Made by a program: the position numbers and the translations under genes
Assembly: GCA_039000985.1 (NCBI GenBank)
Contig: JAWBMD010000002.1
Coordinates: 33,578 to 97,577, forward strand
Direction: 5' to 3'
Length of the DNA: 64,000 nucleotides
DNA from: Candidatus Aenigmatarchaeota archaeon
Lineage (GTDB): Archaea > Aenigmatarchaeota > Aenigmatarchaeia > CG10238-14 > SpSt-28
Part shown: positions 1 through 53,278 of the stretch, in pieces
How positions within the stretch are numbered: position 1 is the stretch's first letter
Layout: each line of letters opens with the position of its first letter
Notes under the pieces: generated by a model
Seen by the model: the letters and a program-made list of their open reading frames with translations, nothing else
Told to the model about the DNA's origin: nothing
Database searches by the model: none

Positions 1-3000
1 CAATTCTATAGCTTCCTGCTTCACAATCCCAGCTAAATATCTTATTTTCACCAGGGAGCAATTCTATTGGTAAGGATTCTAATGGCAATGAAACAGGTTT
101 TAGCTTGTAGACAATAAATTTGCTTGATATTAAAGTATCGTTTCCGGCATTGCTTGAATTAGCAAAAACAGTTACATTAGCTTCTCCATAGCTAGTGGCA
201 TTAACACGCCACCAAACTCTTTTATATTCACCAGGTGAAATACTTCCTAAATTCTTTGTTGGCTCATCAACTTCCCAACCTTGTGGAACAGTTATTGTAA
301 CATTAACATTCTCTGCAGTTGCAATCCATGATGTAATTGTTGCATTTATAGTAAAGTTTCTGTAAACAAAAACTTCTTTTGGGGTTAAGATTTCAAAAAC
401 ATCAACTTGAGGAACACAACCTGGCAATTGAATTGTTATTGTAAAGTTTTCACTAGCATTTGGTTTATAATTTGGTTCAGTTGAGTTAATTTCAGCTGCC
501 CAGAATTGGCTACCTTCATACCATCCTACACATGTTGTTACATTAAGCAAAAATCTTGCATAACCTTCTTCATCTGTATAATTGCTTCCTATTATTTTGT
601 AACCTCCTGGATAACCATTATATAATTTGAAAGTTACAAGAGCTGAAGGATTTGTTACATTATAAGTTTGTCTATCCAAATCATAAACTCTAACTACAAG
701 CCATTGAGGTTGAATATATATAATAACTGTAGTATTGTTTCCCTGACCACCATAGCTAATATTTACATCATCTTTTTCAACAGTTACAGATAAAACTTGA
801 GGAGTTTCAGCTCCATCCATCTTAAATTGATAATACCAAATTCCTTGTTGGCTTGCTGTAAAGTTCCTATACCAATATTTTGTTGAATTAATGCAATTAA
901 AACATTCTGTTGGAGTTTGGTTTAAGCAAGTTGGAGCATCACATTTAAAAATTGGTGGCCAAGCAGTATGCATATACAAGCTAACATTTAAAACATTTTC
1001 ACTATCTCCGCTACTAGCTTTAACTGAAAAGTTCCAGTTTGGATATCCCCATCCTTCTATTGTTGGAATTGCAGTTGGTTCTTCTAACTTTTTAACTGGA
1101 TGTAAGTAGAATAAGCCCGGAACTCCTAAGTTGGTAGTTATATTATCATAATGATAGCTTCTATTAGCAATCATAGTTGTATTATACCAGCCCATTGGAG
1201 TTGTTATATCTGTAACCCAATCACAAGTATAAGCATTAGCACCAACTTGGCTTACTGGAGAGCATTCAAAGCTTTGCTCACTTTTATTTGCAAAGTATCT
1301 TACTGTTGTTGTTAATGGATCGCCACAATCGTCAGTAGTAGCTCCTAAGAAAGGAACTTCTTGTTCTTGCGTATAATTAGTTGAGCCATCTGGCTTTGAA
1401 AATTGTAGAATAATATCTCCAGTAACCAAAACTGAAAGATTGTAATAGCTTTCAGTAGAATTATCTTGATAACAAGCTTGTCCAGAAACAACAGCTTTCC
1501 ATTTTTGATTTCCTACATTATATTTTGGTGAACATTTTGCTTGGAAGTAATAATTAGCATAAGCAGAAGAATTTGTTGTATTACTTGTACCAGAATCATA
1601 AATTGAGCCATCTAAAGTTACATAAAATGTAATTGGCAAATTTGTAATTAAAGTGTTGTTTTTATCTCTAACTCTTAATGCAAGCAAAGTTGTTGTCTTT
1701 CCTCTCCTATTTTCAGTATTATTTCCAATTATATCTTCAAATATCACTTTATCTTTTGTTATTGTGAATGTTGTTGAAGTTGAGTTTGTTGTTCCTGCAT
1801 TGTTTGTTGCGTTGAATTTTGCAAATACAGGCGAACCTATATCTTCACAATCAGCATCAAATGTGAATGTGAAATTTCTCCATGGTCCTGTAGATGAACC
1901 AGGAGCAGGATAGCTATCACAACCAACTAATTTCCAAGGTTCACTACCAGTTTTACTAAAGTAGGAACAAATAATTACACCATTATTCGAATTTCTCACT
2001 CTCACACTTATGTTAAAAGTAAAGTTGAAACCCCATGAGCCAGTTGAAGTCCCAGTTTCGTCAGAAATTATTAGCGGATTTTCCATTTCAATTATCGCAG
2101 GTGGTGCATTTAAAGTTACATCTTTGCATGCCACAACTTTAGTAGAATTTTCTGTCGCGTTTGCTTTTATACAAAATCTTATTGTTCCTGGAGATACACC
2201 GCTTGTATTAACGATGTAAGTATAATCAACATGAGCAACTTTAGATTGTTTTGGTCCAATTGTTTTGAAGTAAGTTAAGTTGCTAATTTGTTGTGTAAAG
2301 TTTTTAATTACAAGATTTTCTAAGCCTGAAATTGGAGTTGTGTTTGTATAGTTAATTTCAATTATTACATTGGTTGCATTTCCAGGGCCATTGTTGTAAA
2401 TTGTTGAGGAAATGTTGAAAATATCACCAGCAAAAATTGGTGGGTTAGTTATTTCTCCTTTTTTAGTTGTGGGTTCGCTAACGCTTAAAGAAGCACCACA
2501 AGCTATGAAAATTGTGTAATTTTCATCGTAAAATGTTAAGCTTGCATTTTTTGGTTGAGCAAAGAAAGTGAAAGTTCCATTTGTTTGGTAAGGAATTGAA
2601 ATTAGATAGGAATAATTTTTTGCATTATCTTTTCCTGTAACACCAAAATTTATACTACCACCCCAATTAATTAATCTAGATTGAATGTAATAGGTTGGTG
2701 TTGGATTAAAATAAGAAAATTGCAAATCACCTGGATGAGTTACAGAAACATTTTCTTTATTTTCAGTTACATTGAAATTCATTGCAGGTAAATTACCTTT
2801 GTTAAAAACTTGTAACTTAGTTGAAAAATTACCACATGCAAAAAATGATGGAAAATCTAACTGTTCATCTACTGAAGTAGTATTGTAATATCTTACAGTT
2901 TTTAGAAATGGCGCTCGAATAGTTAAAACACTTCTATCTAAATGAAATATATAAGCTTTATTTATCCTTCCCCACCCAATATAGTTTGTTAATAGAACTT

Positions 3001-6000
3001 TACCCCCCGGTATTACTTTACCAGCTGAAACTACGTTTGTAATAAATTCAATATAATTTGCTTCACTTACACCTTGTGGCGATGAAGATGCACCAATTCG
3101 CATAACAGTACCGGTTGAATTTCTTATTCCTATCATTCTATATGGAGAGAATTTTACTATCCACCCTTCTTCTTCTGAACCCAAAGGATAACCCGGTTCT
3201 GGGTCAACTACCACGTTAGCGAGACCATTTAAATCAATTATTCTAAAATTAGTCGGTTTCGTAAAACCTGGAGGGATAAAAATCTCTACATAATGAATTA
3301 AAGCACCTCTAGTTGACTCAACTGTACCTGTATAATCTGTACCACCAAGTTTTTGTATTATTCTTAAAGGTAAATTTTGTCCAGGTAATACAGTAGTTTC
3401 ATTAAGTTTTGATGATATCGTTGGGTTTTTTATTGTAGTACTAGCTGAAGTTAATGATACATGTTTTTGTATAACCGATCTGATTTCTCCTGTAGATGGA
3501 TCTTTCCACTCTACGGTTAAATAAAAGGTTTCTTCTCCTACATCATCACTAGGCCTGTATGGTATCTCAGCTCGAAAACAGGAAGATGTATTTAAATTAA
3601 CGTTATACCACCTTAAAACTGTTCCACCAGATTCATTAACATTTGGTTGAGGAACAGCTGGAGTACTTTCAGTAGAAAAGTATCTAAGTAATCCTGTTGT
3701 TTGATCTGTAATATTTACTGTTAAATTATAATCTCCATAATTACAAACATAAATTACTCTTATATCTCTGAAGCAATAGTAGCTTCCAGCACAATATGTA
3801 GAATGATCTATATTGTTATCGCAGCTAGTGCCATAAGAGCTTTCACAGTTTGAACCAAGCATTCGAGGAGTGGAAGAAAATAGTACTATATCTGTAGATG
3901 ACTCCGAATCATCAGTATATACATCAAAACTTTTTTCATGAGTTACAAGAGAGGATCCTAAAGAAATGTTAACAACAACTTTATATTTTACAGCTTCTAT
4001 ATTGTCTGGAATAAAAACTGTAAATGTAACTATAGAAGTATTCCAATTTAGTGCATTTAAAGTTCTTGGTATATTTACCCTTTTTGTCTTACCTTCTACA
4101 ACGAACCAATCTACTTCTTGATTGCTTCTAGTATCCAAAATTTTTATTGAAACGTCAGCAGTTTTATCAAAACTTGTATTATAATTAGCTAAAGGTATCA
4201 CTATCTTTGCTAAATGACCCCTCAAAACTTTATCAGTAGGCTCACCCGTTGGAGAAAATATCTTTATTGGTCTTATTAAGTTTATATCATATGGATATTT
4301 ACAATCAATAAGATAAACATATAAAATATTCGTTTCGAACATAGGGCCAGTTGTTCTTGTTTTTGGTAAAACTCTTATTTTATTTAAACCTAAAGGTGCA
4401 GATGGGGTAATAGTAATATTCCAAACTAAATAGCCATCCCACTCACACTTATCACCATTTGCTGTCGTTGGATTTCTCGTACATGTATCGCCAGTTCCAA
4501 TGCCACTTTGAGAAGTATGAGGATTAGTTTCTCCCGGAAATAGTTTCCAGCCATTTGTTCCTGAGCTTGTTATGGGTTGCCATGTTGGTGTTGCTACTTG
4601 AAGCTCCCAATCTTGTAAAATTCCAGCATCATCATCTGCTTCATCTGTTAGTACTAACCTTAGCGTATAATTCATATTATTTCTACACATAACGACTGCG
4701 TCTCTATAAATTTCAAAAGAATTATAGACTAAATGATGAACCGCATCCACAGCATATTGTAATGGATTTGTTTTGTAATATGGTAAAAATTTGAAGAAAT
4801 AATAAACAACATCAACAACTATAAAAGTCCATGGTTTTATTTCTTTAAATTCATAAGAATTGTTATAGAGAACATATATCGGACCAGCTAAATAAATTGC
4901 TGGCTTGACATCTGGGGTTGTAAAAGTATACCTAAGAACTTTTTCTTCACTTTCATTTAATTTGTTTAAATTCCAAATCAACCAAGTTTCGTTTTCTTTT
5001 TTTTCAATTCTTCCACCGTAAACAACAATTTCAAGAAAATCGTTTGGCAACTTTTCTATAATAGTTATGTTTTCTACATTAATATTAGATTTAACCTTTA
5101 TTTCAGCAAGATTTGGATGTCCTATATCTATTAAGGTTTTCATTTTTCTCTCTATTTCGAATTCTACAAAATTTCTAACTTCAAAAAAAGATTCATAGGT
5201 TGTGTTTAGATTTTGTCCAGTAGCAATTACTTTTATCGAATAGTTTCCTATCTCATCAGTTTGGTTATAGATTACAAACAAACTGCCATCTAACTCATCA
5301 TTAGCAAAATCGCCGTTATAACTATTATAAACCTTAATTTTTCCAGATGGTGATGTGACAACTAAATTGATTACAGCATCATAAGCTCTTTTTCCTTCCT
5401 CATTCAAAACACCAACAATTATTTTAACATCTTCTCCTGGCAAATAAATTGATTTTGGTGTATTAACAGTAACTAATCCAACTCCAAATTCTGTTTCTTC
5501 CTCTTCTAAGACTTCAACAACTTTTTCCAAAACTTTAAATGGTGTTCTTCCTTTTTCCACAAACTTTTCTTCAATTGTTTTGACTTTCAACTTATACAAA
5601 CCTGGTCTAAAACTTCTTCCAAAATCTAAATCAACAAAATATTTACCATCTTTTTCATAAAAATCAACCTCTTTTTCACTTCCTTCAAGATCTATCAAAT
5701 AAACCTTTACTTCATTATTTTCACTTAACTCTTCTTCTAATTCTATTTCAAATGTAGCTCTTTCTCCTAATCCATAGTTAAACTTTTCCTGTTTAATCTT
5801 TGGTTTAAGTCTCAAATGCTTTAAAACATCAAAACCAAAGATTTTGCTTGTATTTCCAAATTCTGTTTCAGCAAAAATTTCTGCCGTATAAGTTCCAGAA
5901 TGTTTTGGCAAGAACTCAAAACTGAACAAAAAGCTACCATCAGTTGATGCTTTATCTTGAAATATTATTTCCCCTTTAGGGTCTTTTATTGCAACAGAAA

Positions 6001-7372
6001 CATTTGAACTTGTTATGCTTTCATTTAAACTAACATTTCCATAAATTTTAACATTTTTCCAGATTCTCTTTTCTTTTGTAACATTTTCAACATAAACAAA
6101 AGCATTTATAGCTATGTTTTTTTGTTCACATTTAACTAAAATATCAAAGCTTTTAAAATCTTTGCTTTCATTTGCTTCTGCAGTAATGTTTAAGGTATAA
6201 TTTCCACATTTGTTTGCTTTTAATAACCAAGATACATTAAAGCTTTCATTTTCTCCAACTTGAGCTAAATTTTTTTGCAAGCTTTCAACTATAAATTCTG
6301 GTGGAGCTTGCAAGCTAGTAGTAACATTAAAAGAAGTAATAAAAGCTTTTACTTCAAATTCTTGCAAAATATTAACAAATAAAGGATGTTCAATTTTTTC
6401 TATCTTGATTTCAGGTTTAACTTGAGCAATATTTTCCAAAGCGCTACTTTCATTTTGGGTAATGTTAATTATTCCAATTTCAGTTTCATTCCAATTTCCT
6501 GCTAAATCAAAAGCATAGAATTTAAAAGCTATTGTTCCACTCGAATTTACTATTTTAGTAATATTGCTCCAACCTTCTAAAACATTAAGATTGGATGACC
6601 AAACAGCTTTACTACCACGCTTAACTAAAATAACATGACTCGGAACTGTTACATCATAAATTATCCCTTTATAGTTTTCCAAGCTTATTTTATTAACATA
6701 AATTGGCTTTAGATTTTCATCAAGAAAAGTTATACCATAGCCAGCTTTAGCAAGTTCATAAGCTTTTTCTATTTCAATGAACTTAAATTCATTTAAATCT
6801 ATACCAAACAAAAAGTCTTTAATTTTTTTAATGGGAGAATAATCAATTCTTGCAAAAACTTTATGATTTTTGGTAACATGAATATTAATTTCTCCATTTA
6901 TCTTGTAGATTTTATCGTTATAAGGAAGTGAAACTATTCTTAATGGCTTTTCCCATTTTATTTTGTTATTAGAAAGGACGGCAACTTCATCATCATAGCT
7001 TAAATCTTTAAAATATTTCCATCCATTTTTTGTTAAAACTTTTGTGTATTCATCATAGCTTGAAATAAAACTATAGCTTTCATTTTCCCAATAGCCAGAA
7101 GCATTCCAACTAAAAATCCACTTATCTAAGCCAAAATCATCTTGCCAAAATGAAAAAAATTCTATTGTATTTCCAAAAGCTTTACTACCAAAATCAAGAT
7201 AAATTGGAGGTAAAATATCAGTAGGTGGAGCAATAAAGCTAGATTCGTTGAAAGTTATATTTTCACTTTCATTTAGAGTTATATTAGCAGCTGCTATTAT
7301 GGATACTATGAAAGCTAAAGAAATTATTGAAAATAATAATTCTGCTTGGCTTGTTATTGATTTCACTCCCAC
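1..7372 (-). CDS. Giant NxS/T-sequon-rich surface protein, N-terminal >2,450 codons (3' end lies beyond the left window edge)
   Basis: Absent from the supplied ORF track. Hand translation of the minus strand from GTG at 7372 gives VGVKSITSQAELLFSIISLAFIVSIIAAANITLNESENITFNESS..., a signal-anchor helix followed by a sequon-rich ectodomain. An in-frame TAA sits at 7390-7388, and an alternative GTG lies at 7366. The same frame is still open at positions 70-2 (...PIELLPGENKIFSWDCEAGSYRI). The track lists no Met-initiated minus-strand ORF with a stop anywhere in 1-7409, as expected if one frame stays open to the edge. Confidence 0.8.
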   Translation of the reverse strand, partial: MGVKSITSQAELLFSIISLAFIVSIIAAANITLNESENITFNESSFIAPPTDILPPIYLDFGSKAFGNTIEFFSFWQDDFGLDKWIFSWNASGYWENESYSFISSYDEYTKVLTKNGWKYFKDLSYDDEVAVLSNNKIKWEKPLRIVSLPYNDKIYKINGEINIHVTKNHKVFARIDYSPIKKIKDFLFGIDLNEFKFIEIEKAYELAKAGYGITFLDENLKPIYVNKISLENYKGIIYDVTVPSHVILVKRGSKAVWSSNLNVLEGWSNITKIVNSSGTIAFKFYAFDLAGNWNETEIGIINITQNESSALENIAQVKPEIKIEKIEHPLFVNILQEFEVKAFITSFNVTTSLQAPPEFIVESLQKNLAQVGENESFNVSWLLKANKCGNYTLNITAEANESKDFKSFDILVKCEQKNIAINAFVYVENVTKEKRIWKNVKIYGNVSLNESITSSNVSVAIKDPKGEIIFQDKASTDGSFLFSFEFLPKHSGTYTAEIFAETEFGNTSKIFGFDVLKHLRLKPKIKQEKFNYGLGERATFEIELEEELSENNEVKVYLIDLEGSEKEVDFYEKDGKYFVDLDFGRSFRPGLYKLKVKTIEEKFVEKGRTPFKVLEKVVEVLEEEETEFGVGLVTVNTPKSIYLPGEDVKIIVGVLNEEGKRAYDAVINLVVTSPSGKIKVYNSYNGDFANDELDGSLFVIYNQTDEIGNYSIKVIATGQNLNTTYESFFEVRNFVEFEIERKMKTLIDIGHPNLAEIKVKSNINVENITIIEKLPNDFLEIVVYGGRIEKKENETWLIWNLNKLNESEEKVLRYTFTTPDVKPAIYLAGPIYVLYNNSYEFKEIKPWTFIVVDVVYYFFKFLPYYKTNPLQYAVDAVHHLVYNSFEIYRDAVVMCRNNMNYTLRLVLTDEADDDAGILQDWELQVATPTWQPITSSGTNGWKLFPGETNPHTSQSGIGTGDTCTRNPTTANGDKCEWDGYLVWNITITPSAPLGLNKIRVLPKTRTTGPMFETNILYVYLIDCKYPYDINLIRPIKIFSPTGEPTDKVLRGHLAKIVIPLANYNTSFDKTADVSIKILDTRSNQEVDWFVVEGKTKRVNIPRTLNALNWNTSIVTFTVFIPDNIEAVKYKVVVNISLGSSLVTHEKSFDVYTDDSESSTDIVLFSSTPRMLGSNCESSYGTSCDNNIDHSTYCAGSYYCFRDIRVIYVCNYGDYNLTVNITDQTTGLLRYFSTESTPAVPQPNVNESGGTVLRWYNVNLNTSSCFRAEIPYRPSDDVGEETFYLTVEWKDPSTGEIRSVIQKHVSLTSASTTIKNPTISSKLNETTVLPGQNLPLRIIQKLGGTDYTGTVESTRGALIHYVEIFIPPGFTKPTNFRIIDLNGLANVVVDPEPGYPLGSEEEGWIVKFSPYRMIGIRNSTGTVMRIGASSSPQGVSEANYIEFITNVVSAGKVIPGGKVLLTNYIGWGRINKAYIFHLDRSVLTIRAPFLKTVRYYNTTSVDEQLDFPSFFACGNFSTKLQVFNKGNLPAMNFNVTENKENVSVTHPGDLQFSYFNPTPTYYIQSRLINWGGSINFGVTGKDNAKNYSYLISIPYQTNGTFTFFAQPKNASLTFYDENYTIFIACGASLSVSEPTTKKGEITNPPIFAGDIFNISSTIYNNGPGNATNVIIEINYTNTTPISGLENLVIKNFTQQISNLTYFKTIGPKQSKVAHVDYTYIVNTSGVSPGTIRFCIKANATENSTKVVACKDVTLNAPPAIIEMENPLIISDETGTSTGSWGFNFTFNISVRVRNSNNGVIICSYFSKTGSEPWKLVGCDSYPAPGSSTGPWRNFTFTFDADCEDIGSPVFAKFNATNNAGTTNSTSTTFTITKDKVIFEDIIGNNTENRRGKTTTLLALRVRDKNNTLITNLPITFYVTLDGSIYDSGTSNTTNSSAYANYYFQAKCSPKYNVGNQKWKAVVSGQACYQDNSTESYYNLSVLVTGDIILQFSKPDGSTNYTQEQEVPFLGATTDDCGDPLTTTVRYFANKSEQSFECSPVSQVGANAYTCDWVTDITTPMGWYNTTMIANRSYHYDNITTNLGVPGLFYLHPVKKLEEPTAIPTIEGWGYPNWNFSVKASSGDSENVLNVSLYMHTAWPPIFKCDAPTCLNQTPTECFNCINSTKYWYRNFTASQQGIWYYQFKMDGAETPQVLSVTVEKDDVNISYGGQGNNTTVIIYIQPQWLVVRVYDLDRQTYNVTNPSALVTFKLYNGYPGGYKIIGSNYTDEEGYARFLLNVTTCVGWYEGSQFWAAEINSTEPNYKPNASENFTITIQLPGCVPQVDVFEILTPKEVFVYRNFTINATITSWIATAENVNVTITVPQGWEVDEPTKNLGSISPGEYKRVWWRVNATSYGEANVTVFANSSNAGNDTLISSKFIVYKLKPVSLPLESLPIELLPGENKIFSWDCEAGSYRI
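6590..7060 (-). other. Hint (intein-like / BIL-like) autoprocessing domain embedded in the giant surface protein (~157 aa)
   Basis: Hand translation gives S-YDEYTKVLTKNGWKYFKDLSYDDEVAVL (intein block A-like), then EINIHVTKNHKVFA (block B, TxxH), then YKGIIYDVTVPSHVILVKRGSKAVWSSN (block F/G-like, terminal Asn). The next residue is Leu, which is not Cys, Ser or Thr. The domain has no endonuclease insert. Confidence 0.6.
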
Positions 7373-7409: not shown

Positions 7410-8183
7410 TTAGTAGAAAATTTTTTTAATTCTGGAAAAAATTTTTTGTATAAGCTTTTCTTCCTTGTATTTTTCCCCAACTATAAAAGCAGAAAGCTTT
7501 AATATTTCTTTTACTGATTTAGAATTTTTATGCAATGAAGCTAAAGGTATTAAAAAATATGAGCTTCTTCTCATGTTTTTATCAAATGGTATTTTTGCTA
7601 TTATTGGCAACTCTGTAATTTGTTCTATTTCTCTATCATTCATTTCAAATCTATCATTAAAAACCATGTTTAAAACAATTCCAAGAGGTTTTATGGTTGT
7701 ATATCTTATTTCTTGATAAGCCCTAACAATATCCATTACAGACGGCAAATATGGTTGTGTAACAAATATTACTTCATCAGAAAATTTCAAGCTTGCTAAT
7801 GATTCTCTCCCTAAGCCAGGAGCTGAGTCTAAAATTACTATATCGTTTTGTTCCCTCATTTTACTTAAAACTTCACCCAAGCTTATTATATCAACCCCAA
7901 CCATATCGCTTACTGAATTTGATGCAGGTATTATTTTTAAATTTTGTGAATACATATGTGTGGCTTCTTTTATACTTGCTTCTCCTCTTAAAATTCTATT
8001 TAAGGTTACTGGGGAGTAATAAATTCCTAAATATAAGCCTAAATGAGAAGTTGTTATGTTACAATCAACTATTGTTACACTTTTTTTAAAAATTTCTGCT
8101 AAAATCCAGCCAATGTTTATAGCTAATGTAGTTTTCCCAACACCTCCTTTACCAGATGATATATTTATTACTCTACAATTCAC
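7410..8183 (-). CDS. MinD/ParA-family P-loop ATPase
   Basis: Deviant Walker A SSGKGGVGKTT near the N-terminus; 257 aa, typical MinD/ParA length. Lies directly upstream of and co-directional with the giant surface-protein gene. Confidence 0.85.
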   Translation of the reverse strand: MNCRVINISSGKGGVGKTTLAINIGWILAEIFKKSVTIVDCNITTSHLGLYLGIYYSPVTLNRILRGEASIKEATHMYSQNLKIIPASNSVSDMVGVDIISLGEVLSKMREQNDIVILDSAPGLGRESLASLKFSDEVIFVTQPYLPSVMDIVRAYQEIRYTTIKPLGIVLNMVFNDRFEMNDREIEQITELPIIAKIPFDKNMRRSSYFLIPLASLHKNSKSVKEILKLSAFIVGEKYKEEKLIQKIFSRIKKIFY

Positions 8184-26715: not shown

Positions 26716-27649
26716 AATATTAGCAATAAACAATATTTGCATAAAAGTTAACGAGAAAAAAATTTTTCTCGATCCAAAAGTTTCAGAGTCATTTTCTTTT
26801 ATTTCACATGCACATGAAGATCATTTGCCAGAATTAATTATTAATGAACCTTATTGTACAGAGGAAACATTCGAATTAATAAAAGTTAAATATCCAAGCT
26901 TCAAAGCAAATATTGTTAAATTTAACAAAAAAATAAAACTTGATGATTTTTCTGTTGAGTTTTTAAGAGCTGGTCATATACTTGGTTCTTCCCAAATTTT
27001 CTTAGAGCTAGATGGTTTGTCAGTTCTTTATACTGGAGATATTAAAACAGTTGATGAATTAACAGCTGGAAAATATCAAACAAAAAATGCTGATACTTTA
27101 ATAATAGAATCAACTTACGGTTTACCTATTTTTAAGTTTCCATCATTAGAGGAAATAATTAATAGCTTAGAAAAAATTTTGAATGAAGAAAATGTGAATT
27201 TGCTTGGCTATCAACTTGGAAAAGCACAAGATATAATAAAAATTTTAAATCTTATGAGTTATGAACCATTTGTATCAAAATCAATAAAAGCTTATTGTGA
27301 AATCTATAAAAAGTTTGGAGTTGATTTGAAATATAGTGATGAACAAACAAACATTTCAGTTAGACCAGCATCATTAATTAAAAAATTTTCTGGCAGAAAA
27401 AATGCAATAATATTTACAGGATGGGCTTTAAGTAGAGAATTTGAAATAGCTGCTTTGCCATTTTCAGATCATTGTGACTTTTACCAGCTTTTAGATTACA
27501 TAATAGAAGTTAACCCAAAAAAAGTCTATGTTGTTCATGGCTTTGTTTATGAATTTTCAAGAGAAATAGAAAAAAACTTAGGAATAGAAACTATACCTTT
27601 TCCTTTCGATACTTTATCCCTATCCTCATTTTTTTCAAGAAAACAATAA
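26708..27649 (+). CDS. Metallo-beta-lactamase-fold / beta-CASP-like nuclease
   Basis: HxHxDH motif SHAHEDH, then GHILGS, IIESTYG and a late FSDHCD motif. Confidence 0.7.
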   Translation: MSEILAINNICIKVNEKKIFLDPKVSESFSFISHAHEDHLPELIINEPYCTEETFELIKVKYPSFKANIVKFNKKIKLDDFSVEFLRAGHILGSSQIFLELDGLSVLYTGDIKTVDELTAGKYQTKNADTLIIESTYGLPIFKFPSLEEIINSLEKILNEENVNLLGYQLGKAQDIIKILNLMSYEPFVSKSIKAYCEIYKKFGVDLKYSDEQTNISVRPASLIKKFSGRKNAIIFTGWALSREFEIAALPFSDHCDFYQLLDYIIEVNPKKVYVVHGFVYEFSREIEKNLGIETIPFPFDTLSLSSFFSRKQ

Positions 27650-30600
27650 ATGTTTTTGCTTTTAATGCTTCCCTTAGTAAATTATTCCTAATAATTGTTA
27701 GATCTTTAATTCTTCCTCTAACTTTTAATATTTCTGATTGATATTTTACCATTATATCATAGAAAGCTTTTTCAGATATTTTTCTTTTAAAGTATTGTTC
27801 CTCAGCGGATTTTCTTGCATTTATTAATTCTTTCTCTTTGCTTGTTAGTGAAATGATTTCTTTTGATAATTTTATGTATGGAACTATTACTTCAACTATT
27901 AAATATGTTGAAAAGAACAAAGCTATTGAAAATGCTATTATTAGGTATTTATAACTAAGCAACAAAAACATCCAATATTTTTTGTTAATTTCTTCCTCCA
28001 ATTCTTTTATTTCTTCGCTTAATTTTTTGTTATAATTAATTAAATCAAGTAAAGCATTATTTGCTATTGAATTTTTTGCATTAATTAAAACATTGTTCAT
28101 TTCATCTATACTTTTTGTTATAGGTACTCCAAAGTTTTTATATTCTTCATATATTTTTTTCAAATCTTTTAATTTTGATTCAAGTTCTTTTAAATCATTT
28201 ATCAAGCCATTTTCCTTTATCTCTATTACTATTGACTCCGAATCAAATGTTTCATCTGAAAATGCATAAAGTATTAGTTTGTATTCTCCTTCAGTTGAAT
28301 TTAAAAATGAATGAACAATAAAAGGTATGTCTCTTCTCTCTCCTGCTCCAAGCTCTATTGTTAAATTATCTTTTATTCCATAAATAGTGCAAGAAGTGCA
28401 ATCAAATAAATATTTAATTGTTAATTTAATAGATGTATAACCGTTGTTAGAAATAGTAGCTATTAAAGTTCTATTTGTTCCAGTTTCAATTAATGCTCTT
28501 GTTTCATTACCTTTAAATTGTATTGAAAATGTTATGTTACATTCTGGAGAAAAAGAACAATAATATGTTTGATTTGGTAAGCAATATTGATTGCAATCCA
28601 ATCTTTCAAAGTACATTTCATATGGCTTACATGGACTTATACCACAACCTTTTTTAATTTCTCTCCCACATTTACAGATTGGAATTTCCGTAGGTGCAGA
28701 AACTCCTGGAGAAGAAGATGGGGGTGGAGCAGGTTGTTGTTGTAAAATTATTGTTCTTAAATTAACAACATGCAAACCAGAATTATTAAAATAATCTGTT
28801 GAATTAATTGTGATATTAAAAGTAGTTCCATATGTATTTGGTGAATAGCATCTATCTATACAGCCATCAAAGCTATATGTATTTAAAGCTTCATTACTAC
28901 ATGCGTTGTAGTAAAATTCTGTTTCGTTATGCAAAACAAGCTCTGAATTTATATTATAACATAAAATATTAACTATAGCATCTTTAATTTCTTTATCTTC
29001 TCTATAATTAAAAATTTTAGCCCTTGGAAGACCTTCTGCACTTTTTATTGTCGTTTTCGGTTGCATTGTTAGCCCTTCAGATGGAACAATTACTTTTATT
29101 TTAAGCAAATTTGTTAACAAAAACAAAAGCGTGTTATTACCAATGTTCCCATACTTTTCTGCTGTTACATTTAATGAATAGCTTTGCAAAGTATAGGATG
29201 GATTTAAAAAGAATTCAGCAGTACCATTTTCACTTATAATATTTGTTTGATTTGTTATATTTCCTAATGAATCTATTAATAAAATTGTTATGTTAGAATT
29301 ACTAACATTAAATGAATTAACATCCCTAACAACAAAAATTATGCTCTCACCTTTGTTAAAAACATTAAATGGTGTTATGAATTCTATGCTATATTTATTA
29401 AAAGCTGTGAAATTACTTTCATCACTATTAACTGTATTAAATGATGAATTTAAATCAGTTGCAAAAATTCTTATTGAATAATTTCCTGTTTCGTTTATTT
29501 GTGTTGAAATATCATCTATTAAAAATTGAAATGCAAACAAATCATTTTCAATTCTTTTCATTGTTACATTTTTTTCAATACCACTTGGAAAAACTAGTGA
29601 AGCATTAACTTCTTTAACAAAAATATTATCAGTTATATTTGCAATTATTTTTAAGCTATCATTTAGATTTGACTTATTTGTTTTTAGTGAAAAGATTTCA
29701 AAGAAAAAATTATTTATTGTAGGTGGTTCTAAATCGAATGGATAAATTGTTATTGAAAAAATTTCAGAATTATTATTACCCATTGATGTATTTGAGGAAA
29801 CATTTAAGAATGTTAAAACAGATTTTTCTGGTTCTCCAAGCAAACTAGCTTTTATATTCCAATTAACACTCGAATAACCTTTCCAAAATATTTCATCAAT
29901 ATATTTAACAAAGCTATCTTCACTTTCTGTTATGTTAATATAGCTTTCGTTCTCGCTATTAAATCTAATTGTTAAATTTCTTAAATCGCCCTTATATGCG
30001 GTAATATTAACATAATATGTTTGATTTTGTCCGGATAGCATTACGGGGTCTGCTTTTATAGTAATAGATGGTATACCAAACTTTACAAAAAATGTTTGAT
30101 TTTTTACTATTATTGAATTGTTCATTAAAGTAACGATATTCGAAAAAACACTATAGTTACCACTTCTTGTAAAGTTAGTAAAATTGTAAGAAAATCTATA
30201 ACAATAACCTAATCTAGGCTCTGTAGCAAAAGCTCTAAATTCATGCAAAGCTACTCCATTTGAAATAGAAATGATAAATTTATATGTTTTAAATGGAGTA
30301 AATTTGTCAAATATTGTTGTTTTTAAAGAATTTGGTATTTGAATGTTTTTTTCAAATGTTTTTACTTGGTTATTTTCATCTATATAGCTTATATTTGCAT
30401 AGCTTGATGAAGAACCAAACCATAATATCTCTATTCTCCTTATTGGGAATATGCTTCTCAATGTTATGTTTATATTATCAATTGCATTAAATGTTGTCCA
30501 GCTCGTTTCATTATTGCTATCTATTGACAAATTTGCATTATTACCATTTAATGAATTAGCAAAAGCACCTTTTTCTAATGAAGCTACATTACCTGTTTCT

Positions 30601-33338
30601 ATTTCTATTCCACAATCTCTAACAGTTTTTACTTCAACTCTATTCGCAAAAAATGTTTCTATTCCAGAATCGAAAGCTTTTAATATTGTGAAATTAACAT
30701 TGCTTATTGTATTATTCCCAACTACATCAACAATTAAATTTGAATATTCGTCGATAAATGTTTGATTATTTTCAATTTTCATATCTAATGGAAATATAAC
30801 TTCAAAAGTTTCATCTATGCTAGTATTTTTAAAAAGAGAAAATAGCTCTACAATCATTCTGTTTAATCCTGAATTATTTGAAAAAGCAGACCAATTTTCA
30901 AAATATTTTGTACCATTTTTTATTGCAATATTTCTTTCGTGAAAGAAATTTTCATTTTTTGTTATATTTAAGTTTGTTTGGTCGAAAATAGTAAGATTAA
31001 AGCTTACATTCCAAATATCTCCGTCAAAAGATTCAGCTATTGTTGTTATGTTAAATGTTTGATTTGTTAATATATGGTAAAATGGTATATAAAAAGATAT
31101 TTTTGGATTACCAAAACTTACATTAAAAGGCTCTGTATCATTTTTTATAAAAGAATATACTGATGAAATGTTTAATCCTACAAAACCAATGTAAAAACCA
31201 CTTCTTTCTGGGGTAAAGTTTAAAGAAAATATATATCTATCATTAATAGTTTCTAAATAATCCATATTAATTGTAATTGTTGTTGGACTTAATGTATTGG
31301 TATCTGTAATATTTAAAAAGCTCGTAGTAAATTTAACTTCATTTATAAATGATGAATTGGAGTCCTTATATATCGAGGCATTTATGATTATGTATTTTCC
31401 ATATAAAATGCTTTTGTTGGATATACTAGTTTCAAAACCAATTATAGTAATTGAAAAATTCGTTGAATTAGATATTCCATTTGAAGGTATAGCTGTTACA
31501 TTAATTAAAACACCTCCAAAATCTATGCTTAATAAATTCCAGAAATTATCTATTGTATAAATTTCTCCATTAGATAAATTGAAAAGTTGATTATAAAAGT
31601 TATTTGAATTCAAAAATAGCTTGGAATAATTGCTACTATTCAAACTCACATTTACATTCCAAACATCTCCCTCAACAGCTTTAAAGCTAACATTAGAAAA
31701 AAATGATTGATTTATTAAAAGTTTATTTTTTGGAAAGTTGAGATTTATTTCTATTTTTCCAAAATCCACAAAAAATGTTGTTGTATTCGCTGCTGTTCTT
31801 GGATTAGCTTCAACCATTACTGAAACAAAGTAATTACCAGATGAATTTGGTATGTAATCTAGATAGTATTCATATAAATCATCTTCATATTTTTTGCTAA
31901 AGCTTAAATTATAATATTCTGTAACAAAAAGGCTTCCAGTAGAATTTACTTTAAGATAAGTTATTGTTGAATTAACAATTTTTATTTCACTCGCATTTGT
32001 TACATTAACAAAAATTCTTATTGGCTCTTTTACTTTTATGTTTGTTGTTTTATTTATTTTTGGCAAGGCTGTTAATTCTAAAAACTTTATCCATGTGCTT
32101 GATTCATTCTGTGAAGAAATAAGATTTTGTTTATAGTAAGTTGATGTATTTCCAAATGTTCTGCATTTTACTGTTATATTTTTAGCAACAGTGATTTTAA
32201 CTGGACGAGTAGCATATCCTGTTCCATTAGTTGTTTTGTTATTATCATCTACACTATAATCTACAATAAAATTAACTGGTTGATTTGGTAATGGTTCCGT
32301 TGATGTATTATCTGCAACTAAACAATCTACATTTACTGTTTCTTCCACATAAGCATATTTATCATATGGTATTATCTCTCTTACCTTAGGAAATGACCAA
32401 AGAGTTAAATTTAATTCAGGAAAAGTTGTGTTATATCCTCCAAATGAGTTATTCGCAAATATTGAAAAATTATAAATACCACCAATTTTATAAATTGGAT
32501 CTGAGCTATTAAAAATGTAATTTATCCAATAGTTATATAAAGGAATATTTAATATAATAGCATGGCTTTTATTTAATGATGTTATATCTCCATATGGTTG
32601 TTTAATGTAAAGAAATGAATGATTAACATCGGTTATCTGGAAAAGTGCTGAAATATTAGCATATTGACCTCTATCTATTTCATATGAAGATAAAGATAAA
32701 TTACTAAATGTTAAATTAAAATATTCAACAATTATAAAAATGTAATCTATTACAAGTGCAACCTTATTATCATCATTGTCATAACCCCTCCAAGATAAAG
32801 CAGCGTTTTTAATTTTATTCAAATGATCTAAATATCGAGTAACCTCGAAACTTTGAACAAATAAACTAGTGTTTGAAAAATTTCTACAAGAGGCTTGGCT
32901 TTCTGGTAATACTACATTGTAAGAAAAATATCCTGTATAATTATTTCCAATAAATAAATAGCATTTATCATTAATATTATCACCCAATGGTGTGCCTGAT
33001 AGATCACAAATACTACCACTTACCTTGCAATCATCAGATTTCATTTGTGCATAAACATTTTTCACATTTATCCAATAATGGATTGGATAATTGGAAAATG
33101 AAACATTTATTCTTCCATATTTTTCAACATTGTAATCAGTAATAGTAAGATATTCATAACTAGAGTCTTCATAGTTAATATTAGTAAGATAACAGTATGG
33201 TGATGGATTACTTGCTTCTATACATTCATAAATTTGAGTTGGTCTAATAGTTAAATTTGCAAATTGAGAGAAAGAAAAAGAAATTAACAAAAAAACTAAA
33301 GCAATCCAACAACCTCCTTTGGTACAAGCTCTTTCCAT
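27591..33338 (-). CDS. Giant (1,915 aa) type I membrane surface glycoprotein
   Basis: N-terminal signal-like CWIALVFLLISFSFSQFA. I counted about 29 NxS/T sequons in the first ~520 residues. It also has a discoidin/F5-8-type-C-like stretch (SIDSNNETSWTT...IRRIEILWFGSSSSYANISYIDENNQ), a Pro-rich linker QQQPAPPPSSSPGVSAP, a Cys-rich segment, a single C-terminal TM (LIIAFSIALFFSTYLIVEVIV) and a ~90-aa cytoplasmic tail. Confidence 0.85.
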   Translation of the reverse strand: MERACTKGGCWIALVFLLISFSFSQFANLTIRPTQIYECIEASNPSPYCYLTNINYEDSSYEYLTITDYNVEKYGRINVSFSNYPIHYWINVKNVYAQMKSDDCKVSGSICDLSGTPLGDNINDKCYLFIGNNYTGYFSYNVVLPESQASCRNFSNTSLFVQSFEVTRYLDHLNKIKNAALSWRGYDNDDNKVALVIDYIFIIVEYFNLTFSNLSLSSYEIDRGQYANISALFQITDVNHSFLYIKQPYGDITSLNKSHAIILNIPLYNYWINYIFNSSDPIYKIGGIYNFSIFANNSFGGYNTTFPELNLTLWSFPKVREIIPYDKYAYVEETVNVDCLVADNTSTEPLPNQPVNFIVDYSVDDNNKTTNGTGYATRPVKITVAKNITVKCRTFGNTSTYYKQNLISSQNESSTWIKFLELTALPKINKTTNIKVKEPIRIFVNVTNASEIKIVNSTITYLKVNSTGSLFVTEYYNLSFSKKYEDDLYEYYLDYIPNSSGNYFVSVMVEANPRTAANTTTFFVDFGKIEINLNFPKNKLLINQSFFSNVSFKAVEGDVWNVNVSLNSSNYSKLFLNSNNFYNQLFNLSNGEIYTIDNFWNLLSIDFGGVLINVTAIPSNGISNSTNFSITIIGFETSISNKSILYGKYIIINASIYKDSNSSFINEVKFTTSFLNITDTNTLSPTTITINMDYLETINDRYIFSLNFTPERSGFYIGFVGLNISSVYSFIKNDTEPFNVSFGNPKISFYIPFYHILTNQTFNITTIAESFDGDIWNVSFNLTIFDQTNLNITKNENFFHERNIAIKNGTKYFENWSAFSNNSGLNRMIVELFSLFKNTSIDETFEVIFPLDMKIENNQTFIDEYSNLIVDVVGNNTISNVNFTILKAFDSGIETFFANRVEVKTVRDCGIEIETGNVASLEKGAFANSLNGNNANLSIDSNNETSWTTFNAIDNINITLRSIFPIRRIEILWFGSSSSYANISYIDENNQVKTFEKNIQIPNSLKTTIFDKFTPFKTYKFIISISNGVALHEFRAFATEPRLGYCYRFSYNFTNFTRSGNYSVFSNIVTLMNNSIIVKNQTFFVKFGIPSITIKADPVMLSGQNQTYYVNITAYKGDLRNLTIRFNSENESYINITESEDSFVKYIDEIFWKGYSSVNWNIKASLLGEPEKSVLTFLNVSSNTSMGNNNSEIFSITIYPFDLEPPTINNFFFEIFSLKTNKSNLNDSLKIIANITDNIFVKEVNASLVFPSGIEKNVTMKRIENDLFAFQFLIDDISTQINETGNYSIRIFATDLNSSFNTVNSDESNFTAFNKYSIEFITPFNVFNKGESIIFVVRDVNSFNVSNSNITILLIDSLGNITNQTNIISENGTAEFFLNPSYTLQSYSLNVTAEKYGNIGNNTLLFLLTNLLKIKVIVPSEGLTMQPKTTIKSAEGLPRAKIFNYREDKEIKDAIVNILCYNINSELVLHNETEFYYNACSNEALNTYSFDGCIDRCYSPNTYGTTFNITINSTDYFNNSGLHVVNLRTIILQQQPAPPPSSSPGVSAPTEIPICKCGREIKKGCGISPCKPYEMYFERLDCNQYCLPNQTYYCSFSPECNITFSIQFKGNETRALIETGTNRTLIATISNNGYTSIKLTIKYLFDCTSCTIYGIKDNLTIELGAGERRDIPFIVHSFLNSTEGEYKLILYAFSDETFDSESIVIEIKENGLINDLKELESKLKDLKKIYEEYKNFGVPITKSIDEMNNVLINAKNSIANNALLDLINYNKKLSEEIKELEEEINKKYWMFLLLSYKYLIIAFSIALFFSTYLIVEVIVPYIKLSKEIISLTSKEKELINARKSAEEQYFKRKISEKAFYDIMVKYQSEILKVRGRIKDLTIIRNNLLREALKAKTFIVFLKKMRIGIKYRKEKV

Positions 33339-34402
33339 TTTTCATTATTTTCTTTTATTAACTTTCTAACATAAGTCCCTCTATAAATATTTCTTGGTTT
33401 TAGCAATAATGGTTCTATTACTTCCTTTTTTCCTTCAAAACATTTTTTTACATGATTAGAGGCTGTAAAAACAATATCAAAATCAAAATTTTTAATACAA
33501 TACTCTGTCCATTTTTCATCATTATTAAAATCTGGTACTTTAACTATTTTCAAATTTTTTCTATTTTTAAAAACTAGTTTTATCATTTTTTCCCTTAAAT
33601 TAGCAGTATATGGATTTCTTGGTTGATTATAATATTGAGCAGAACCTATTCCAACAATAACTTCATCAAATAATTTTAAAGCTTGATTTATTGCATATAC
33701 ATGCCCTAAATGCAATGGTTGGAACCTTCCAATAAAAAATCCCTTTATTTTTAAATTTAAAGCAAATTCTTTTAAAACTTCAGCTGGATTTTTTGCTTTT
33801 ACTATTCCCGAAGAAACCAAAACTCCTCTTGCTCCTAAAATTCTAGATTTCTTAACATCTAATGCAGTTTTTATCCCAGCACCAACTAATAGCTCAACAT
33901 CATTTTTTCTACAAATATCAAAAGCTCTTTTTATTATTTTTGGCTTTGCTGTAGAAACACTAATATCACCGCCAATTAATTCTTTTGGTTCATATGCAAC
34001 ATAATCTGGCTTAAACTTAACTATTTTTTTTATTTGAGAAATTTTGCTTGATAGAACAACTGATGTTAAGCTAAGGTTTTTACAAATCTCAACACATTTT
34101 TTAATTTCTTTTATACTTAATGGTTTTTCTGAATGATTAATCAAAGTACCTTTAATACCAAGCATTTTTAATGAGCTAGCAATAATAGATCCTGTAAATG
34201 AACCAAGATTTTCAATAGGGTCAATATGTTGAGCAAAAACTTTTATTTTACAATTTTTTGCTATTTCCTTTATATCTAAAAAATTTGGAGCAACTATTAT
34301 ATCAACTTTATATTTAGCAGAAATTTTTTCACAAATCTTAGCTAACTTTAAAGCATTTTTATTAAAAGATTCAGCATAATTCTTAAAGTTGACAACAATC
34401 AT
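33296..34402 (-). CDS. Fusion protein: triosephosphate isomerase (N-terminal ~215 aa) + nicotinamide-nucleotide adenylyltransferase (C-terminal ~150 aa)
   Basis: The TIM part has VNFKNY, GTLINHSE, YVAYEPKELIGG and LVGAGI. The NMNAT part has GFFIGRFQPLHLGHVYAI (HxGH), VGIGSAQ and WKELVPKEVV. It is one uninterrupted 368-aa ORF. Confidence 0.8.
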   Translation of the reverse strand: MIVVNFKNYAESFNKNALKLAKICEKISAKYKVDIIVAPNFLDIKEIAKNCKIKVFAQHIDPIENLGSFTGSIIASSLKMLGIKGTLINHSEKPLSIKEIKKCVEICKNLSLTSVVLSSKISQIKKIVKFKPDYVAYEPKELIGGDISVSTAKPKIIKRAFDICRKNDVELLVGAGIKTALDVKKSRILGARGVLVSSGIVKAKNPAEVLKEFALNLKIKGFFIGRFQPLHLGHVYAINQALKLFDEVIVGIGSAQYYNQPRNPYTANLREKMIKLVFKNRKNLKIVKVPDFNNDEKWTEYCIKNFDFDIVFTASNHVKKCFEGKKEVIEPLLLKPRNIYRGTYVRKLIKENNEKWKELVPKEVVGLL

Positions 34403-49254: not shown

Positions 49255-49365
49255 CGGGACGTAGCTCAACGGTAGAGCGGCCGGCTGTAGGTAGTGCATT
49301 GCATTATTCACAGTGGTCGCTCAGTAGAAACCGGTAGGTTGTGGGTTCGAATCCCACCGTCCCGA
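49255..49365 (+). tRNA. tRNA-Tyr (GTA) with 39-nt intron (49291-49329) at 37/38
   Basis: Acceptor CGGGACG/CGTCCCG gives the C1-G72 pair typical of archaeal tRNA-Tyr. The anticodon stem GCCGG/CCGGT encloses CTGTAG|intron|A. Confidence 0.85.
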
Positions 49366-53151: not shown

Positions 53152-53278
53152 GCAGGGGTCGCCAAGTCTGGCCAAAGGCGGCAGGCTTAAGAAGCAACTA
53201 ACCCATCATCTTAAGCTATGATAAATGAAGAAACCTGCTGGGTTAGTCCCTTCGTGGGTTCAAATCCCACCCCCTGCA
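53152..53278 (+). tRNA. tRNA-Leu (TAA), class II, with 41-nt intron (53192-53232) at 37/38
   Basis: Acceptor GCAGGGG/CCCCTGC, anticodon stem GCAGG/CCTGC enclosing CTTAAG|intron|A, long variable arm, T-arm GTGGG-TTCAAAT-CCCAC. The intron contains a second CTTAAG that can pair with the anticodon loop. Confidence 0.85.

Follow-up and report, generated by a model that had tools for sequence, protein, structure and literature searches.

Hint domains that cut their host proteins and do not splice canonically are known from bacteria, as the bacterial intein-like (BIL) and pre-toxin (PT-HINT) domains, and from eukaryotes, as the Hedgehog and ciliate BUBL domains. The A-type BIL domains were reportedly described by Amitai et al. 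in 2003 and by Dassa et al. in 2004. The BIL domains lack a nucleophile at the +1 position and yield mainly cleavage products, and the A-type members are able to ligate to a minor extent when the freed amine attacks the (thio)ester (PMC4031507; PMC7765530). In a Magnetospirillum BIL domain, a Tyr+1Cys exchange restored splicing (PMC4031507). Members of the BIL families resemble one another more than they resemble inteins (PMC7765530), and PT-HINT sits immediately before a C-terminal toxin domain (PMC3482391). We examined a stretch of 64,000 nucleotides from a Candidatus Aenigmatarchaeota archaeon (GenBank assembly GCA_039000985.1, contig JAWBMD010000002.1, positions 33,578 to 97,577), referred to here as the window, in which the gene of a giant surface protein codes for a Hint domain of the mini-intein type with 157 residues (6590..7060, minus strand, Ser1 to Asn157), identified by profile, structure model and conservation. 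As judged from its alignment with inteins, this domain keeps all the residues that inteins use for both bond-breaking steps, while the Ser, Thr or Cys expected at +1 is gone. We consider it probable that the Hint is an autoprocessing module like the A-type BIL domains, with cleavage as its main outcome.

The catalytic motifs of the domain were readily placed on the minus strand. Ser1 (7058..7060) aligns with Cys1/Ser1 of canonical inteins and is the predicted nucleophile for an N-O acyl shift at the N-terminal junction, and block A reads SYDEYTKVLT. Block B contains T63-K-N-H66 (TxxH; 6863..6874), in which the Thr and His are invariant in the orthologues, and block F contains D136...H142 (YDVTVPSH; 6635..6655), likewise invariant in the orthologues and aligning with Y[C/D]VTVPxH of the canonical relatives. 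Block G ends in VWSSN with Asn157 (6590..6592), which aligns with the terminal Asn of the related inteins, the residue that cyclises in inteins. It is followed by a non-nucleophilic Leu at +1 (6587..6589), as seen in the translation and in 25 orthologous copies, where inteins have Ser, Thr or Cys; the first Ser after the Hint in the window protein is at +8. No homing endonuclease is present in the Hint, and tblastn found no second copy of the Hint or of its surrounding sandwich domain in the window. The domain comprises residues 103-259 of the protein when counted from the GTG start at 7366 and residues 105-261 when counted from the GTG at 7372. An earlier note on this DNA, made from its letters alone, had placed an intein-type Hint with Ser1, TxxH, blocks F/G and a terminal Asn at residues ~105-261; these coordinates are exact in the second numbering, and all of the named motifs are present. 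A shifted junction, for example one reading VWS followed by S, was considered and rejected, as canonical inteins align with an identical VWSSN that is then followed by C or S.

The kinship of the domain with inteins was assessed through family models, profile searches and structure prediction. Taken as a single sequence, the Hint matched Pfam Intein_splicing at E 8e-5 with 22.9 bits, under the family cut-off of 35.8, and its TIGR01445 score of 21 was likewise below the cut-off of 24.5. The Pfam PT-HINT and Hint (PF01079) models, both named in the earlier note, and the Hint_2 model gave no match at E<=1. Sequence searches of the PDB with the single sequence and with a small profile returned nothing significant and no BIL domain, and the sole intein was AceL NrdHF at E 0.45. 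A profile of the window Hint and three orthologues, searched against 1.84 billion representative proteins, matched 5100 proteins at E<=1e-3, of which 1444 reached E<=1e-10, and essentially all of the 5100 are canonical inteins. Many of the related inteins carry LAGLIDADG endonuclease inserts, and the nearest reside in viral genes, such as that of the terminase large subunit. The strings TKNGWKYFKDLS and VTVPSH..VWSSN occur nearly verbatim in both the Hint and true inteins. One true intein, P0006, reads KEKYG before its first junction, CYDKETEILTKNGWKYFKDLS...VTVPSHIIYIRRNGKGCWCGN within the intein and S after it, and the identical VWSSN end is found in the true inteins P0048, where C follows, and P0077, where S follows.

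The best 150 of the 5100 profile matches were aligned back, giving ~233 junctions. Position 1 was Cys in 211 (211/231) and Ser in 15, and the last residue was Asn in 221 and Gln in 8. The residue before it was Gly in 201, Ser in 16 and His in just 3, and a Ser-Asn ending is therefore ordinary in this clade; the penultimate Ser, which the earlier note had treated as an anomaly, is not one, and true inteins end in the same VWSSN. The +1 residue was Ser in 156, Cys in 36, Thr in 31, Leu in 9 and Phe in 1, the single Phe being a spurious 1.5-bit match. Among these best 150 relatives, Leu at +1 was confined to the orthologue group of the window Hint. On these alignments, the sole real departures from an intein are the Leu at +1 and the less common Ser1.

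An AlphaFold2 model covering one sandwich half, the Hint and the other sandwich half, built from a 16-row alignment, reached a predicted local distance difference test score (pLDDT) of 88.6 and a predicted template modelling score (pTM) of 0.72. The top 17 PDB matches of the Hint model in Foldseek were all inteins or BIL domains (TMt 0.60-0.76, probability 1.0). The best was the AceL NrdHF intein (E 3.7e-7, TM 0.74), and the others included Tetrahymena BIL2, a BIL domain of Clostridium thermocellum (TM 0.76) and the gp41-1 and DnaB mini-inteins. The profile alignments and the predicted structure together show a Hint-fold domain that is intein-derived and without a homing endonuclease, in agreement with the fold and type that had been proposed from the letters.

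We then analyzed the sequences on either side of the Hint. The upstream flank (7061..7219, minus strand; DILPPIYLDF...FSWNASGYWENESYSFIS), on the N-extein side, was recognized from the AlphaFold2 strands and from uninterrupted homologues aligning across the junction as the N-terminal half of an immunoglobulin-like (Ig-like) beta-sandwich. The C-terminal half (6455..6589, minus strand; LNVLEGWSNITK...FYAFDLAGNWNETEIGIINITQ) lies on the C-extein side, as placed by the model and the homologue alignment, and the host strand resumes directly after Asn157. When the flanks were joined without the Hint, with full orthologue segments aligned to the joined window sequence, a 7-strand Ig/FN3/PKD-like sandwich was predicted (pLDDT 89.4, pTM 0.80). 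Foldseek returned generic FN3/PKD/Ig matches only for this joined model, and Pfam assigned no named family to the joined flanks. A word-indexed search with the joined flanks gave no homologue lacking the Hint, whereas scanning genomes and metagenomes with degenerate patterns brought up many.

These scans, run with a profile of the joined flanks, yielded 54 loci from species-representative genomes and 117 metagenome loci, of which the best 80 were used. The Hint was present at the identical point in 11 species-representative and 16 metagenome sandwich loci, and in 22 of these 27 (11/11 species-representative, 11/16 metagenome) the N-half is directly followed in frame by the Hint and the C-half. 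Among the other five, a contig end or a stop codon truncates three, and an inserted cassette splits the remaining two (L073, L130). The sandwich ran uninterrupted across the junction in ~42 species-representative and 64 metagenome loci, with 28-46% identity and often in tandem, and these belong to Methanosarcinales, Woese-, Nano-, Micr- and Aenigmarchaeota. Because related sandwiches run uninterrupted over the junction, the Hint is not an ordinary part of the repeat domain, and the suspicion in the earlier note that the flanks were one beta-sandwich split by an insert proved correct, with relatives found both with and without the insert. In the alignment, the Hint interrupts a short, length-variable loop that links the ...FSWNxSGxWxN... 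strands to the WSNxTK strand. The Hint was present in all sandwiches whose flanks were at least 55% identical, and no polymorphism for its presence or absence was seen within the host clade.

It was also noted that a near-identical strain carries a different form of the gene. In L001 (GCA_039091915.1, JAWCHB010000005.1, 6001-6633; protein P0007), the neighbouring genes are 98-100% identical to those of the window, and the N-terminal region appears recombinant, keeping the window's signal peptide and adding one extra Ig-like domain. Its similarity to the window ends exactly at the N-junction of the Hint, after an N-half ending ...YEFSS, and is followed by a hydrophobic stretch of 33 residues that matches nothing, up to the contig end. 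This form, considered as a possible allele without the Hint, may be a recombinant version of the gene or a product of faulty assembly.

Conservation was assessed among 25 distinct complete orthologous Hints of 157-160 residues, mostly from metagenome-assembled genomes labelled Aenigmatarchaeota. Ser1, TxxH and the C-terminal junction (SSN followed by LN) were kept in 25/25, and the block F D..H was present in 24/25 by strict pattern. Across 17 unique Hints, with identity down to 43%, 40 of the 157 positions (25%) were invariant, including all six catalytic ones; the calculated chance of all six being invariant was ~2e-4. The median ratio of nonsynonymous to synonymous divergence (dN/dS; Nei-Gojobori, 31 pairs with dS<2) was 0.087 in the Hint compared to 0.186 in the sandwich flanks. 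The G+C content of the Hint, 27.0%, matched that of the flanks, 27.6%, and dS between orthologues was close to saturation. A recent horizontal acquisition was rejected on the basis of this flank-like G+C content, the near-saturated dS and the missing endonuclease. From this examination, the Hint is shown to be a long-fixed resident of the giant-protein family, seated in a surface loop of its first Ig-like domain, the one nearest the membrane.

The two metagenome contigs with an interrupted Hint, L073 and L130, have the orthologous coding region broken after ...QILTRE by ~850 nucleotides. On the opposite strand, the insert encodes a PIN-domain gene (PIN_2, E 6e-19) and a 92-residue partner in a toxin-antitoxin-like arrangement, and the sense frame through it remains open. 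In L073, these features lie at 1392-2099 and 2487-2729, and a second insert is also present. In this lineage with a disrupted Hint, the block B TxxH has decayed to SLDQ (VSLDQ), which suggests that TxxH is not maintained by folding needs alone.

The host gene is an open reading frame (ORF) on the minus strand (1..7366) that starts at the GTG at 7366, with the GTG at 7372 as the alternative, and stays open past the window edge, with more than 2455 residues inside the window and a translation free of stops throughout. Its nearest database proteins come from Candidatus Aenigmatarchaeota metagenome-assembled genomes, among them P0001, which has 97% identity to the window protein and begins with MKSITSQ. 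The 23S rRNA gene in the window is archaeal, and the window was judged archaeal on that account. A Kyte-Doolittle scan marked an N-terminal signal peptide or signal anchor (7280..7366, minus strand; VKSITSQAELLFSIISLAFIVSIIAAANI), and residues 11-29 within it are the sole hydrophobic segment in the window part of the protein. The complete orthologue P0018, of 6185 residues, likewise has one N-terminal hydrophobic segment and no second. The N-terminus is thus the only predicted link to the membrane, with the Hint between it and the ectodomain. Full relatives reach up to 6185 residues. The ectodomain of the window protein is rich in Ser, Thr and Asn, with ~4 N-x-S/T sequons per 100 residues, and Pfam recognizes MG2 and NPCBM_assoc/NEW3 Ig-like domains farther downstream.

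Most orthologues have an additional domain in front of the membrane segment. In 10 of the 11 species-representative loci, a cytoplasmic domain of ~70 residues (HPEGLT...GLHRHTSxKY...CYL) precedes a single transmembrane helix. Pfam HTH_IclR matched 10/10 aligned N-terminal domains (nine loci and P0014; best E 2.8e-8), with matches to MarR and HTH_24 as well, and the PDB profile match was the HTH domain of TtgV. This winged-helix DNA-binding domain of IclR/MarR type was found in L003, L005-L011 and L013 and in proteins P0004 and P0012-P0014, while the window protein, P0001, L014, P0015 and P0018 lack it, their N-terminus being a signal peptide or anchor. The Hint is situated 100-260 residues from the N-terminus, at residues ~103-415 in proteins of 2500-6185 residues. 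In most orthologues, the predicted order is therefore a cytoplasmic winged helix, a transmembrane helix, a linker, the Hint-split Ig-like domain and the giant ectodomain.

The composition of the Hint also differs from that of its surroundings. The window Hint has no Cys, and none was found in the Hint of 9/10 proteins. N-x-S/T sequons were absent from the Hint in 9/10 proteins, compared to 4-7 per 100 residues around it. Ser1, Asp136 and the Ser-Ser pair stand where relatives have Cys. A sequon-free and nearly Cys-free Hint would fit a domain that folds and acts outside the cell.

Under the autoprocessing reading, Ser1, the TxxH and the block F Asp would promote an N-O acyl shift, converting the peptide bond on the upstream side into an ester, and the block F His with the terminal Asn would promote succinimide formation, breaking the downstream bond. 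This would be a single-turnover event that takes place once the protein has been exported and folded. The ester formed between ...SFIS and Ser1 may be hydrolysed, Asn157 may cyclise and separate from LNV, or both, so that the chain would be cut at one or both Hint junctions. Religation, in which the freed Leu amine attacks the ester, would account for a minor fraction at most. Since the protein has its sole hydrophobic anchor at the N-terminus, with the Hint separating this anchor from thousands of ectodomain residues, such a cut would sever the covalent tie between the membrane anchor and the ectodomain. The two halves of the Ig-like sandwich might then hold the parts together noncovalently, or the ectodomain might be set free. 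In the precursor model, the sandwich is already folded, and the cut chains may therefore stay associated, giving a noncovalent joint rather than immediate shedding. As an extension that we regard as a long shot, the cut adhesin could be held by the sandwich halves to a membrane-tethered transcription factor as a force- or ligand-sensitive joint similar to GAIN or SEA modules. A pull on the ectodomain, for example when an episymbiotic DPANN archaeon touches a host cell, would part the two halves and either expose the stub to proteolysis or alter the activity of the winged helix.

Several points weigh against autoprocessing by cleavage. A thioester is more reactive than the oxyester expected at Ser1. 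The domain also lacks the penultimate His that aids Asn cyclisation in many inteins, though the entire clade lacks it, canonical members included. We infer cleavage from conservation alone, and a "stuck" selfish mini-intein that needs to remove itself would show like purifying selection on its catalytic residues. The sandwich is predicted to fold around the Hint, and the host may therefore tolerate the insert unprocessed. The N-terminal segment of the window protein may also be a cleavable signal peptide (AAA before the cut, N after it), in which case a cut at the N-junction would free just a ~70-residue peptide.

The other readings of the locus were weighed on the same evidence. Ordinary class 1 splicing, which we give practically no credence, would agree with the closest sequence relatives being canonical inteins and with the intact blocks; however, Leu stands at +1 in every copy, the next Ser in the window protein is only at +8, and among the ~233 junctions of the relatives this group alone is without S/T/C at +1. 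The earlier note had held that canonical splicing by transesterification to a +1 nucleophile looks impossible. Such transesterification is indeed excluded by the invariant +1 Leu in 25 copies, but to call splicing as such impossible would be too strong, given that A-type BIL domains can ligate without a +1 nucleophile (PMC4031507). That route underlies a reading that we hold to be unlikely while taking it seriously, in which the Hint is a trapped selfish mini-intein that has lost its endonuclease, has no host function and splices completely through the Ser1 ester, Asn cyclisation and attack by the alpha-amine of Leu+1, restoring an intact Ig-like domain. It would agree with the conservation of all residues for both cleavage steps, including a terminal Asn that is invariant though unneeded for N-cleavage alone, and with the prediction of the joined flanks as a well-packed sandwich. 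Ligation by A-type BIL domains without a nucleophilic side chain offers a precedent (PMC4031507, citing Dassa 2004 and Aranko 2013), and the difficulty of deleting an intein exactly would explain its persistence. Nevertheless, loss of the +1 nucleophile should cut ligation sharply, yet Leu+1 is fixed in 25/25 with no reversion, the products of BIL domains are mostly those of cleavage (PMC4031507), and an amine attacks an oxyester more slowly than a thioester. Inteins are hardly ever established in non-conserved surface proteins, and the sandwich appears to fold with the insert in place, so that selection for removal would be weak compared to the strong constraint observed.

The pattern of this constraint also bears on whether the Hint could be a catalytically dead, exapted domain, a permanent structural or binding module whose "catalytic" residues are kept for folding. 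We consider this improbable, as the six catalytic positions are all invariant compared to 25% of positions overall, and Ser1 and Asn157 lie at the domain edges, where structural constraint is usually weakest. The identical VWSSN end occurs in canonical active inteins, and TxxH has decayed to SLDQ in the disrupted L073. A dead domain would still account for the sub-threshold score of the Pfam intein model, for the loss of the +1 nucleophile along with the missing penultimate His, and for a precursor model that folds well with the Hint nested inside. There is a far slimmer chance that the Ser1 ester is resolved in the manner of Hedgehog proteins by a lipid, glycan or envelope component, which would join the short N-extein covalently to that molecule. 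The extracellular location and the plausible ester chemistry at the N-junction would allow this, and Hog domains provide a precedent within the Hint superfamily (PMC7765530). However, no region for adduct recognition follows the Hint, as the Ig-like strand restarts at once; the strictly conserved terminal Asn is not required by such processing; and the N-extein is already anchored in the membrane.

Additional features were recorded elsewhere in the window. A ParA/MinD-like ATPase gene (7410-8183, minus strand) adjoins the giant gene and is also beside it in the near-identical strain L001 (5184-5957). In L002, a ParA/MinD-like ATPase gene (6494-7207; 32% identity, divergent orientation) and a separate HTH_24 gene adjoin the 6185-residue orthologue. 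The 23S rRNA gene (22115-26181, minus strand) spans 4067 nucleotides compared to a model of 2987. It encloses an ORF of 263 residues (22677-23468, minus strand) that carries the LAGLIDADG motif twice (Pfam LAGLIDADG_3, E 1e-23); an intron of the rRNA coding for a homing endonuclease is the probable explanation. Two Rfam tRNA genes of 111 and 127 nucleotides (49255-49365 and 53152-53278, both plus strand) were missed by ARAGORN and probably contain introns. A second very large ORF (27591-33338, minus strand; 1915 residues) gave no Pfam match at E<=1e-4, and an ORF of 368 residues (33296-34402, minus strand) combines triosephosphate isomerase and cytidylyltransferase-like domains in one frame.

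With regard to novelty, the bare presence of a Hint in these proteins is already annotated, since the NCBI pipeline labels several of the orthologues "Hint domain-containing protein" in GenBank. The searchable literature holds reviews of BIL, PT-HINT and Hog domains, but no account of these giant proteins or of an autoprocessing domain of intein-like type in archaea was found in it, and a paper on Aenigmarchaeota genomics (PMC8407114) makes no mention of Hint, intein or giant protein. New here are the absence of the nucleophile, which is strictly conserved, the position within a loop of an Ig-like domain, the ancestry among virus-type inteins and the juxtamembrane site, often behind a winged helix. 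The domain would represent a clean natural case of an intein turning into a host autoprocessing module, nested among canonical inteins and essentially one +1 residue class apart from them. Its chemistry, a nearly Cys-free Ser1 oxyester outside the cell, would be unusual for the setting, and its site is a strategic one in giant surface proteins, the presumed mediators of contact between cells in DPANN archaea. Coupling to a membrane-tethered winged helix in most orthologues points to a possible link with signalling; if the contact-to-transcription reading were true, this would be an archaeal signalling device built from a domesticated intein. A Cys-free extracellular Hint that cleaves without a +1 nucleophile could also serve as a self-cleaving tag.

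Compared to known systems, the domain is nearest by sequence to the class 1 mini-inteins of the Gly-Asn clade in viral genes (P0010, P0019 and P0063 of the terminase large subunit; also P0006, P0048 and P0077). Blocks A, B, F and G are common to both, the size is similar and the fold the same, and each is an in-frame insertion in a domain whose homologues lack the insert. The window Hint differs in its +1 Leu in place of S/T/C, in its lack of an endonuclease and in its Ser at position 1, which is Cys in 211/231 relatives. Its host is a non-conserved extracellular giant and not a replication or packaging enzyme. With PT-HINT, it would share the character of a Hint autopeptidase within a long secreted protein, whereas it is located near the N-terminus and no toxin/immunity module was seen. 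In contrast to the Hedgehog Hog domain, there is no region for adduct (sterol) recognition behind the Hint, and the terminal Asn is kept. The GAIN/GPS modules of adhesion GPCRs and the SEA modules are autoproteolytic juxtamembrane modules that leave noncovalently associated fragments. By analogy, the Hint would similarly cleave itself near the membrane, with an anchor on one side and a very large adhesive ectodomain on the other, and the cut would lie inside beta-structure that possibly holds the fragments together. The fold and chemistry are unrelated, and the analogy is a functional one.

The A-type BIL domains offer the closest functional comparison. Both have a Hint fold (Foldseek TM 0.76 to 2lwy of Clostridium thermocellum), both combine an N-terminal nucleophile and a C-terminal Asn with the absence of a +1 nucleophile (the definition in PMC4031507). 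BIL domains reside in variable regions of non-conserved secreted proteins of bacteria, and the giant surface protein of the window appears to be variable as well, a near-identical strain having an apparently recombinant N-terminal region. By analogy, N- and C-terminal autocleavage with possible minor ligation would be expected of the window Hint (PMC4031507, PMC7765530). However, the window Hint is archaeal, whereas BIL domains are bacterial; its sequence groups with canonical virus-type inteins and apparently not with the BIL families; it has Ser1 (an oxyester) in place of Cys1 and ends in Ser-Ser-Asn in place of the conserved His-Asn; and it is nested in an Ig-like loop beside a membrane anchor. 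The earlier comparison with BIL and pre-toxin domains is thus retained for the functional likeness to BIL, while by sequence the domain belongs with true inteins, without a PT-HINT match or the position before a C-terminal toxin. As the sequence sides with true inteins, the Pfam PT-HINT, Hint and Hint_2 models are silent and the position is N-terminal, the resemblance is probably one of function and convergence rather than of membership. The sequence evidence taken together points to a domestication that was apparently independent, giving archaea a probable equivalent of the A-type BIL domains.

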